Source: Candidatus Woesearchaeota archaeon
GTDB lineage: Archaea > Nanobdellota > Nanobdellia > Woesearchaeales > DATGWN01
Assembly (NCBI GenBank): GCA_047603125.1
Contig: JBLKOU010000003.1
Coordinates: 1-56,862, forward strand
Direction of reading: 5' to 3'
DNA: 56,862 nucleotides
Positions 24,001-27,000 of the stretch are shown here, piece by piece. Numbering within the stretch: position 1 is the first letter of the stretch; every line of letters begins with the position of its first letter. Position numbers: made by a program.

Positions 24001-27000
24001 ATTTAAAGAATTTACAAAAGCAATTGTTCTTTTTGGAAGTGCTTCGCGAAAAACCAATGATGAACAAAGCGATATCGATATTTTAATTATTCTTGATGAT
24101 ACACAAATTGTCCTCTCAAAAGAAGTCATGGAAACGTATAAAATTATCTGTGCAAGACTCATACAAAAAATATCCCCACAAATTCACGTTACCACACTCA
24201 AATATTCCACCTTTTTTGACTATGCTCGACAAGGAGATCCCATTGCGATTAATATTTTACGAGATGGTGTTGCACTTGTCGATACAGGAGTGTTTGATCC
24301 ACTTCAAGTATTACTCTATACAGGAAAGATACGCCCAACAGAAGAGAGTATTTGGAACTACTATCATCGTGCAACACGCACACTACACAATTCTCGCTGG
24401 CATCTTCACCGTGCAATAGAAGACTTATATTGGGCCGTGACAGACGCAGCACATGCAGCACTTATGAAAGCGGGAGTCATGCCGCCAACGCCCGAACATA
24501 TTTCAACACTTGTTCACAAACACCTTGTTTCCAAAAAAATTCTCACAACAGAGCATGTAAAAACGATTGAACTGTTCTATACACTTCATAAAAAGATGGA
24601 ACATAAAGAACTAGGTCATGTGCATAGTTCACAATACGAAAAATATTACGGATATGCTACTCGTGTAGTGGAGCAAGTAGAGCGCTATCTTGAGCAATAA
24701 TATACATGAGCTCTCCTTGATACATTTTTTTCTTCCAAACGAAGGCTAATCTTGTAAGAACCTTCTCAAACCACGAAATCGTTGTTCGCTTCATTACTTG
24801 CCCCTTTACATTTTGTAAAGGAAATGAAGCAACGATAATTTTTGCTTGAATGGCTTGTAAAATATCATAGGAACAATACAAGCGCTGTGTTTCAAAAGTG
24901 TCAAAGCATTTGAGTGCCAAGCACAAATCAAAATTTCCTAAACTTGTTATTTTTTTATGCTCACGGACACAATCAAACGCAACTGCCGTATATGAATGTA
25001 ATCTATGAAACGCAAAATATTGCAACAACAAGTCACAATCTTTCAAACTTAATTCATTTGCGACATAACGAATAGAAGGATAGTATTGAGAAATTTTAAT
25101 GGGATTCATCCCCGCAGCCAGATCAAGAACGGAATCGGGTTTAAACGCGTCAAAAATATCCTGCAAAAAAGCATCATAATATCCTTGACGCTCCTTTGTT
25201 GAAAGATGACTCATCACTAAGGATTGTGCATCTTCTATAGAACGTTTTGTGATACGTGAAGGTATTTGAAACACTGAATAAATATCCCGTGTTTTAGCAC
25301 GGACATGTTTGATGATTTCTTTTATACTCTTTGGACTAAAATCACGCACTTTCGGATTTAATCGAACATATTCTGTTGCTAGTTGTTCAATAAGATGCTC
25401 ACTTAAATTCGTATACTCTTTTTTTTGTTGAACACCCTCAATTATTTGCAGGAGATGTGTGGGCGAAATCATTCTAATCGAGTTCCAGACCACGGCTTCC
25501 AGTCATCGCTATCAGGAGCATATCCTTGGAAAATAAAATTTGGTTTATTACCCGCACCCATGGAGTAATTTTCAATTTGACTAAATTGGGAACTTGGATT
25601 GAGCCAAGCATTAGTCCCTTGCGCATACGTGGACGTTCCTGCCATTTTCCACGCTTCAAATATACCCGCATTATGTCCTGCTGCAAAACCACCCTCGGCC
25701 TGTATTTTCCCACTATAACCGTGTTTTTTTAAAATCTTCATCACTTCTTTTACCGGCGCATTTCCTTGTCCGGGAGCTAAATGCGCATCGTCATATCCGA
25801 AGTTATCTGCTAAGTGTACATTTCCTATAATATTATCTTTTGCTAAATCTTCAACCTGCTCAGTAAACCATTTATTATAACGCTTTGTCCACTCGTCTTC
25901 ATTTTCTCCGTCCTTTTTCTTAAAATGTTTCTTCCACATATTTAAGTGTCCCGTATCAAGTGTCGCTCCAATATGGTCTTGCGCTTCTTTTTCTGCCTGC
26001 GCTTTTGAGACTCCGTTTTTTTCCATAAGTTCTTGTGCAAATGCATCCCGAGCCTGCGTGACAAGTGTTTTGAGTTCTTGCGGGTGTGAACCATAATCTT
26101 GTCCCTGCATTGTAGGGTAAATATTTTCTAGGTTAATCTGAATAGGTTTTATATCATCATTGGGTCTTTTCTCCCTTGCAGACTTTGTTTTTTCTCTTGC
26201 ATACCGTGCTAATTCCACCACGGACTTTTTGTTTTTTTCTAGTCCATATTTTTCAACTGTTTCTGCATGATTAATACGTTGAATCAACTCAAAAGCTTGC
26301 TTTCTGCCACCCGAAGCAGTCTCCCGACCATAAAGAATTCTTCTTCTATTATCATCAAGTTGTTCTTGTAAAAATTCAATAGGATCTTTTGTTTCTGGTG
26401 GAATTAAGTCGTTAGCACCCCCTATCGTCTTTTTCTGTAACTCCCATTCCTCCTCACTTAGATTCTTCTTTAAATTTTTATAGAACTTTAGTGCCTTTAT
26501 AATCTTCTCTCTTTGTTTTAATCCTACAGTGTATGATGATTCCAACTCTCTAGCCTGACCTAGTGTTTGCTGCACTTGTCCATACGCTTGTTCCTTGAAA
26601 AATTCTTTTAACGTTTCTTCCATTATTTTTTCTTCTTCCACAATACCTTTTTTTTTTAATTTTTCTTTATGGTCATCGTAAAACTCACCAAATGTTTTTT
26701 TTTCAAATTGTATATTTCCGTTTTTTTCCTCAAATAATTGAATTTGTGCTTCTTTTTTTTCTTCTTCAGTGAGAAATTCAAACTTTTCCTCAGGTGACAT
26801 TTTTTCTTCCCATTTATCCCTATACTTCTCTTCTATTTTTTTTCTTGTTACAATATCTGTCACCATTACATCATCATACACAGGTTTACCCTCGTCATCA
26901 CGAAGAATTTCTTTTTCACCATCTTCATTCTTTTTATACACAGGAATACGAATTTCTTCATCCTCTTTCACACCTTTAATTAATTGCCCCGTTTTAGAAT

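Follow-up and report, generated by a model that had tools for sequence, protein, structure and literature searches.

An inherited Arm/Rmt-family methyltransferase of Nanobdellota that is kept in lineages with A1405 in 16S rRNA

Introduction

A gene in a 56,862-nucleotide stretch of DNA from a Candidatus Woesearchaeota archaeon (the window) encodes a protein of the family annotated as 16S rRNA G1405 methyltransferases, which raises the question of which nucleotide such a protein modifies in these archaea and in what role. The matter has practical weight, as genes that databases label 'G1405 methyltransferase' are liable to be miscalled as resistance genes in environmental archaea. The initial annotation had found no paper on the archaeal gene; it is, however, named in the accessible parts of two. 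NEQ545 of Nanoarchaeum equitans was described as the first archaeal ortholog of the Arm family, its function being left open (Husain et al. 2010, PMC2896518), and Podar et al. (2013, PMC3655853) proposed the gene, present as NEQ545 and as Nst1_103 of nanoarchaeon Nst1, as a signature that Nanoarchaeota share with bacteria. A literature search, which did not extend to subscription journals and bioRxiv supplements, found nothing on the wider spread of the gene or on an A1405-U1496 pair in these archaea. The occurrence of the family in nanoarchaea was thus known before, and lineages that have A1405-U1496 and keep the gene are new here. In sum, a family already reported from this lineage is confirmed as more widespread, and its target assignment is challenged by new comparative evidence.

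Results

Family membership and predicted structure

The 271-residue protein (P0001; Table 1) matched Pfam FmrO (PF07091) with an E-value of 8.8e-12 and 45.4 bits, above the cut-off of 27, over model positions 80-243 of 255. The general NCBIfam Rmt model NF000466 was matched over positions 4-253 of 254 (E 3.5e-26), with a score of 92.1 bits against an equivalog cut-off of 250. All eight PDB sequence matches were G1405 methylases, and identity to plasmid RmtB and ArmA was 22-24% over 93-96% of the query. Low identity and the lack of a structure model had been among the caveats of the initial annotation; an AlphaFold2 model was now built from an alignment of 141 rows (pLDDT 96.7). It combines a helical N1/N2 domain with a class I SAM fold, and solved members match it along the full length. 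The top 11 rows of a Foldseek search with this model were all Arm/Rmt, as were the top 9 of a VIA search (Z 26.0-20.1, including RmtF at 26.0, Sgm at 25.7 and RmtB at 24.9), the next family following at Z 16.9. Superposed on 6pi9, 246 residues aligned with an rmsd of 3.2 (Z 26.0). On all three counts, sequence, fold and active site, P0001 is a genuine Arm/Rmt (FmrO) homologue of full length, as had been claimed, and its homology is not in doubt.

Contigs from three RNA runs of one study did not cover the gene, which proves nothing about its expression; modified bases would in any case be invisible in contigs. A promoter and terminator scan around the gene, based on a bacterial consensus unsuited to archaea, gave results at chance level.

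Table 1. Coordinates in the window of the methyltransferase gene, its predicted functional segments and the upstream gene.
Feature	Position	Strand	Basis or remark
FmrO/Arm-Rmt family SAM-dependent methyltransferase gene, 271 aa (P0001)	24657..25472	-	open frame, Pfam, NCBIfam, PDB, structure model and fold search
Predicted helical N-terminal docking domain (about residues 1-70)	25263..25472	-	K55, R58 (RmtC R50) and F68 (RmtC Y60) kept; E19 at RmtC K20, R62 at RmtC H54
Family motif H89-x-S91-T-x-E94-R95	25188..25208	-	RmtC S107, E110, R111; SAM carboxyl and guanine pocket
SAM-binding motif I, residues 116-124 (D117, G121, N123, P124)	25101..25127	-	sequence match
K188 codon	24909..24911	-	RmtC K204 (contacts N7 of target guanine), Sgm K199
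Loop equivalent to RmtC loop 237-246, which distorts helix 44	24792..24827	-	M227 kept; Q220, Q225 at RmtC K236, R241
Xylose-isomerase-like TIM-barrel gene, 693 aa, upstream	25469..27550	-	stop overlaps ATG of the P0001 gene (ATGA); context only

Catalytic pocket and docking surface

Residues were mapped to RmtC and to Sgm from the accessible parts of the published descriptions (PMC10288597 and bioRxiv 10.1101/712810 for RmtC, PMC2896518 for Sgm) and counted in 112 archaeal and 88 presumed bacterial rows. The pocket for SAM and the guanine N7 is kept. At the positions of RmtC Y60, S107, R111, D160, D188 and K204, P0001 has F68, S91, R95, E140, D167 and K188, and the 112 archaeal rows are nearly invariant (Y60 as F or Y in 112, S107 in 109, E110 in 111, R111 in 112, D160 as D or E in 112, K204 in 111). 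Two basic residues of the N-terminal domain are likewise kept, K55 in 111 rows and R58 in 107.

The residues with which RmtC docks on helix 45 and distorts helix 44 are, according to the accessible text of PMC10288597 and bioRxiv 10.1101/712810, needed for its action and for resistance. In most of the 112 archaeal rows other residues stand in the helix-45 set (E at K20 in 95, L at Y21 in 85, R at H54 in 91), whereas the 88 presumed bacterial rows mostly retain it (K20 in 72, Y21 in 81, H54 in 84). The helix-44 loop is mostly kept, with K or R at RmtC position 236 in 77 archaeal rows and at 241 in 100, and M or I at 245 in 104. Compared with RmtC K20, Y21, R50, H54, K236, R241 and M245, P0001 itself keeps Y20, R58 and M227 and has E19, R62, Q220 and Q225 at the others, with an alignment at K20 that could be off by one residue (K17 and K18 are adjacent). 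This pattern suggests the same chemistry with altered docking in the archaeal clade.

Distribution and inheritance

The spread of the family was assessed by a Pfam FmrO search of 301 genomes of the phylum with a completeness of 90% or more, and of 14 control genomes. Matches were found in 177 of the 301 (117/217 in the window's order, 60/84 in other orders), in a single copy in 176 of the 177 carriers, and in 0/14 controls. A lineage profile was then applied to 80 of the 124 Pfam-negative genomes and recovered one more full-length gene (in G059), for a total of 178/301. Missed divergent copies are thereby rejected as an explanation of the absences among the 80 genomes re-searched, 26 of which gave only weak partial matches to other methyltransferases. 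These tallies include G242, a genome marked unpublished. Some families are rich in the gene (f12 35/36, f15 12/12, f16 10/10), f4 is mixed (8/24), and in this sample f9 (0/7), f22 (0/8) and f17 (0/5) are without it throughout. The gene is therefore common, old and, largely family by family, dispensable in about 40% of genomes; the wide spread proposed at the outset is borne out on our own sample, but 'hallmark of Nanobdellota' is too strong a term for it.

Inheritance was examined in an IQ-TREE quick tree of 76 rows (56 archaeal, five named Rmt/ArmA proteins and 15 presumed bacterial). A branch with SH-aLRT 97 has 54 of the 56 archaeal rows on one side, and a FastTree of 161 rows agrees with this archaeal clade. 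Families f12, f72, f74, f76, f49, f59 and f87 each group together; clustering is incomplete in f4, f16 and f77. P0001 is a long branch (0.96). The two remaining archaeal rows, L004 and L006, lie among bacterial-type sequences and may, from that placement, be separate gains. Genome G092 (L133, L004, L136) carries two FmrO genes, one of the archaeal clade and one of bacterial type with a degenerate motif. Among the best 80 of 287 named loci, titles read Woesearchaeota, Pacearchaeota, Nanoarchaeota, Parvarchaeum, unclassified archaeon and 'uncultured Methanosarcinales'; the last fall within the Woesearchaeota-labelled clade of the tree, so these titles would appear to be mislabelled. Three homologues (P0072, P0138, P0148) are 482-489 aa long, with a C-terminal fusion resembling a second class I methyltransferase domain.

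The GC content of the P0001 gene (0.356) resembles that of its surroundings (0.33-0.40). One archaeal clade, clustering by family, single copy, flank-like GC and housekeeping neighbours together indicate a native, inherited gene rather than a mobile resistance gene.

16S rRNA of carriers and non-carriers

The 16S rRNA of the window's own genome has G1405 and A1408. The initial annotation had cited this target G in favour of G1405 methylation; the nucleotide is indeed present, but the large majority of 16S genes in the phylum have G1405 whether or not the genome carries FmrO, so that the motif is no evidence for the target. Five rows of this comparison were not rRNA-like and were ignored; two others showed A1405.

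A search of 401 genomes for a nucleotide other than C at 16S position 1496 gave 10 matches, seven in archaeal 16S and three that were not rRNA and were dropped. In all seven genomes (G341, G025, G142, G044, G056, G067 and G346, at loci L140, L141, L142, L143, L144, L146 and L149, respectively), A1405 is combined with U1496, and G1401 and C1501 are retained. They span six families and at least two orders, and no 16S copy with C1496 was seen in them. Four of them (G056, G346, G044, G142) could be compared with a relative from their own family, and in each case that relative had the nearest 16S. Rfam found no 16S in G346, where the locus scan found its 3' part at a contig end. Three of the seven have U1400.

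The pair was also present in archaeal-type 16S ends at 38 of the 80 metagenome loci (L178-L257) listed from at least 102 matches, 32 of these ends being distinct, and Rfam on 20 metagenome loci assigned 9 to archaeal SSU and 10 to bacterial-type SSU. Its recurrence in archaeal-type metagenome sequences shows that the pair is no assembly error, and by sequence G1405A with C1496U is a compensatory change in the decoding helix. Ten metagenome loci (L178, L181, L198, L200, L206, L217, L228, L242, L247, L250) are divergent bacterial-type or organellar SSU ends without an anti-Shine-Dalgarno tail, with A1405-U1496 and C1499.

An open FmrO gene with F/Y68, S91, R95, D117, D/E140 and K188 was found in all seven A1405 genomes. 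E94 is kept in six and is Gly in G067; co-variation of this residue with A1405 was considered and rejected, as it is changed in only one of the seven and is Ser in the G1405 genome G152. Between G044 and G142, of one genus, the proteins differ at 36% of residues, with dN 0.28, dS 1.21 (near saturation) and dN/dS about 0.23. Among the first 301 genomes, the gene was present in 5/5 with A1405 against 88/156 (Fisher p 0.07, kin not being independent), which is not significant alone. Retention of the gene with its catalytic residues where position 1405 is adenine makes the label of a G1405 target doubtful.

Other 16S positions also vary. Position 1499, which lies in the common 1492R primer site, is C in 146 of the 150 rows listed from 165 matches, where A is usual; the observation covers G000:C7:9960-9973 (L031) and the phylum sample. 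Carriers and non-carriers share it, and it was rejected as a mark co-evolving with FmrO. Position 1498 is U, A, C or G in a few listed rows, and the 16S of G092 (L133) has C1404U, G1497A and U1498A.

KsgA/RsmA is described as near universal. A search of 80 phylum genomes with a limit of E below 1e-15 recovered it from only 19, namely 10/40 FmrO carriers and 9/40 non-carriers, and the window's own genome has both genes; replacement of one by the other was rejected. A relation to fibrillarin (29/40 carriers, 33/40 non-carriers, p 0.42) was rejected as well. Fibrillarin was not found in 18 of the 80 genomes, mostly outside the window's order; the window's genome has two fibrillarin genes.

Gene neighbourhood

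The gene had been placed in a co-directional string with YhbY and the RqcH NFACT-R piece. Two unrelated genes (3.6 kb) separate it from these, and among 111 other FmrO loci (flanks of only 1.5 kb for 31, up to 5 kb for 80), YhbY was adjacent in 0 and NFACT in 1. The arrangement is local, and it was dropped as functional evidence. The RqcH-like gene (window 29749-30549) corresponds to only the C-terminal 265 positions of a 645-position archaeal model. The TIM-barrel gene was linked to FmrO in 1/111 loci, there on the other strand; its protein has a long charged insert, and the same part of the window (25469-29040) also encodes a 497-aa protein without a Pfam match. Downstream, a convergent nucleotidyltransferase gene (window 23876-24700; weak MntA-like match, C-terminal helical part) overlaps the 3' end of the P0001 gene by 44 bases. 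This gene and the TIM-barrel/497-aa pair also occur together in L098.

Rio1 and Dim2 have roles in small-subunit maturation. A Dim2/Krr1-like KH-domain gene lies upstream of FmrO on the same strand in 14 of the 111 loci, within 45 bases or overlapping in 10, and Rio1 and aIF1A are each nearby in 9. This link is a better hint of small-subunit maturation than YhbY/RqcH, but few related lineages have it. Other neighbours are also lineage-specific, namely Pelota (8 loci), aIF2-gamma (9), a MiaB-like radical SAM gene (8) and a tRNA-binding domain (5), and in about 35 loci of Pacearchaeota type (within L049-L124) FmrO is antisense inside a conserved pilus operon (T2SSE/T2SSF, pilin). The 29 commonest neighbour clusters included no transposase or resistance family, and no antibiotic cluster was found among the neighbours of archaeal FmrO genes. 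Together with the clustering by clade and family and the flank-like GC, this is not the mobile context and patchy recent transfer of an acquired resistance gene.

Discussion

The ring of m7G opens in alkali. In the 16S rRNA of N. equitans, as described in the accessible text of Seistrup et al. (PMC5389701), the RNase T1 fragment U1406-G1410 was seen, i.e. the RNA was cut after G1405, all 1402 fragments were missing, and an ambiguity of sequence at G1401 led to the suggestion that this guanine is modified. The accessible part of Lioy et al. (PMC3923132) reports that m7G1405 abolishes the T1 cut at that site. An m7G at 1401 would give both N. equitans effects, through a blocked T1 cut and ring opening in alkali. 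The accessible text of PMC5389701 makes no link of the G1401 signal to NEQ545 and mentions it in passing rather than as a chemical identification; the T1 fragment shows only that part of G1405 is unmethylated and argues against full modification there. These data may not carry over to other Nanobdellota, as NEQ545 is diverged, is without one N-terminal helix and was compared by its published description.

Our preferred reading, to which we give about an even chance, is that the gene encodes a native methylase of guanine N7 in the small subunit, acting on a nucleotide other than G1405. G1401 is the lead candidate, though less likely than not when taken alone. In its fullest form, which is possible but likewise far from secure, the Nanobdellota branch of Arm/Rmt would have been retargeted and, as the small subunit matures, would make an undescribed m7G1401 at the P-site end of helix 44. 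An inherited, chromosomal and dispensable methyltransferase, working like Arm/Rmt, would bind SAM; its helical N-terminal domain would dock it on the small subunit of the ribosome or on one of its late precursors; and it would open the top of helix 44 and methylate N7 of a flipped guanine, tuning or maturing the decoding centre rather than conferring drug resistance. The analysis shows the fold, the pocket for SAM and the guanine N7, the inheritance and, in some lineages, the linkage to small-subunit maturation genes; catalysis, an rRNA substrate and a guanine other than G1405 are what we infer. Counting against this reading, all members of the family characterised so far methylate G1405, the archaeal rows retain most of the helix-44 loop, and P0001 is a long branch with Gln at both basic loop sites in a genome whose 16S has G1405.

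An alternative is a true housekeeping G1405 N7-methyltransferase, kept in A1405 lineages as a relic or for binding alone: fold and catalytic residues place the protein in the family, G1405 is present in most 16S genes of the phylum including that of its own genome, and the loop is largely conserved. We consider this rather doubtful, given that the open gene and its catalytic residues are retained in all seven A1405 genomes, across six families, with low dN/dS in the one pair, that T1 cuts after G1405 in N. equitans (PMC5389701, PMC3923132), and that the helix-45 docking residues essential in RmtC are replaced. The initial annotation was right in seeing a native, inherited gene rather than a mobile resistance determinant, and is contradicted on G1405 by the A1405 genomes and the N. 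equitans mapping. The protein might instead be a small-subunit assembly factor for which binding to helices 44 and 45 is more important than methylation, or it might flip out position 1405 and tolerate A as well as G there. Coupling to Dim2/Krr1-like KH, Rio1 and aIF1A genes fits such a role, as do the scarcity of KsgA in the 80 genomes searched and the rRNA surface that RmtC and KsgA share in the accessible account of PMC10288597; the near-invariant SAM and N7 residues argue for catalysis on guanine, FmrO and KsgA do not exclude each other, and about 40% of genomes lack the gene, many of them also without KsgA, which leaves this reading unlikely in either form.

To our knowledge 7-methyladenosine is not a known rRNA modification, which counts against the purine-tolerant variant. 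Methylation of guanine N7 in another RNA, 23S rRNA or tRNA, would suit the Pelota, aIF2-gamma, MiaB-like and tRNA-binding neighbours and the independence of the gene from position 1405, but is very unlikely with the basic N-terminal domain (K55, R58) and helix-44 loop of a 30S-binding family kept, and with the hint from N. equitans lying in 16S helix 44 (accessible part of PMC5389701). Most improbable of all is an aminoglycoside-resistance determinant, kept or acquired for defence. The nearest characterised relatives are resistance enzymes, the own 16S has A1408, and L004 and L006 may be separate gains; yet the gene forms one old clade tracking families, in single chromosomal copy with flank-like GC and without transposase or resistance families among its commonest neighbours, it is retained where 1405 is A, and the residues that RmtC needs for resistance are replaced.

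Between them, the A1405-U1496 lineages and the earlier N. equitans spectra narrow the question to G1401 versus G1405. If the target has shifted, the enzyme would reveal how this scaffold selects a nucleotide and would bring a further modification into the decoding centre; were the product m7G1401, it would explain the G1401 signal in N. equitans rRNA, and the scaffold of the resistance methylases would have an ancient housekeeping version with a different target. That a near-universal pair of the decoding site has undergone a compensatory change is noteworthy in itself.

Comparison with known systems

NEQ545 and Nst1_103 are likewise archaeal Arm-family homologues. NEQ545 is a diverged form without one N-terminal helix (accessible part of PMC2896518), a short form also seen in L034, whereas P0001 has the full N-terminal domain. 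With the acquired enzymes RmtB, RmtC, RmtF, RmtG and ArmA (NF000466), P0001 shares the fold, the N1/N2 plus Rossmann layout and the equivalents of S107, R111, D160, Y60 and K204; it differs in being only 22-27% identical and below every NCBIfam cut-off, and the archaeal clade differs in its replaced K20, Y21 and H54 docking set. The acquired genes are plasmid-borne, while the archaeal gene is chromosomal, inherited and kept where the 16S has A1405. Sgm, a producer self-resistance methylase of PF07091, is close in fold (Z 25.7), and its S104, E107, K199 and F64 have equivalents in the archaeal form; its P229 is Pro in only 42/112 archaeal rows against 85/88 bacterial rows, and its Y244 is mostly Arg or Lys in archaeal rows. 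KsgA/RsmA, RsmF and RsmI/H belong to other families with other chemistry, and FmrO shows no replacement pattern with KsgA or fibrillarin; they act in the same 30S region, and it is by analogy with them that a maturation role for archaeal FmrO is proposed.
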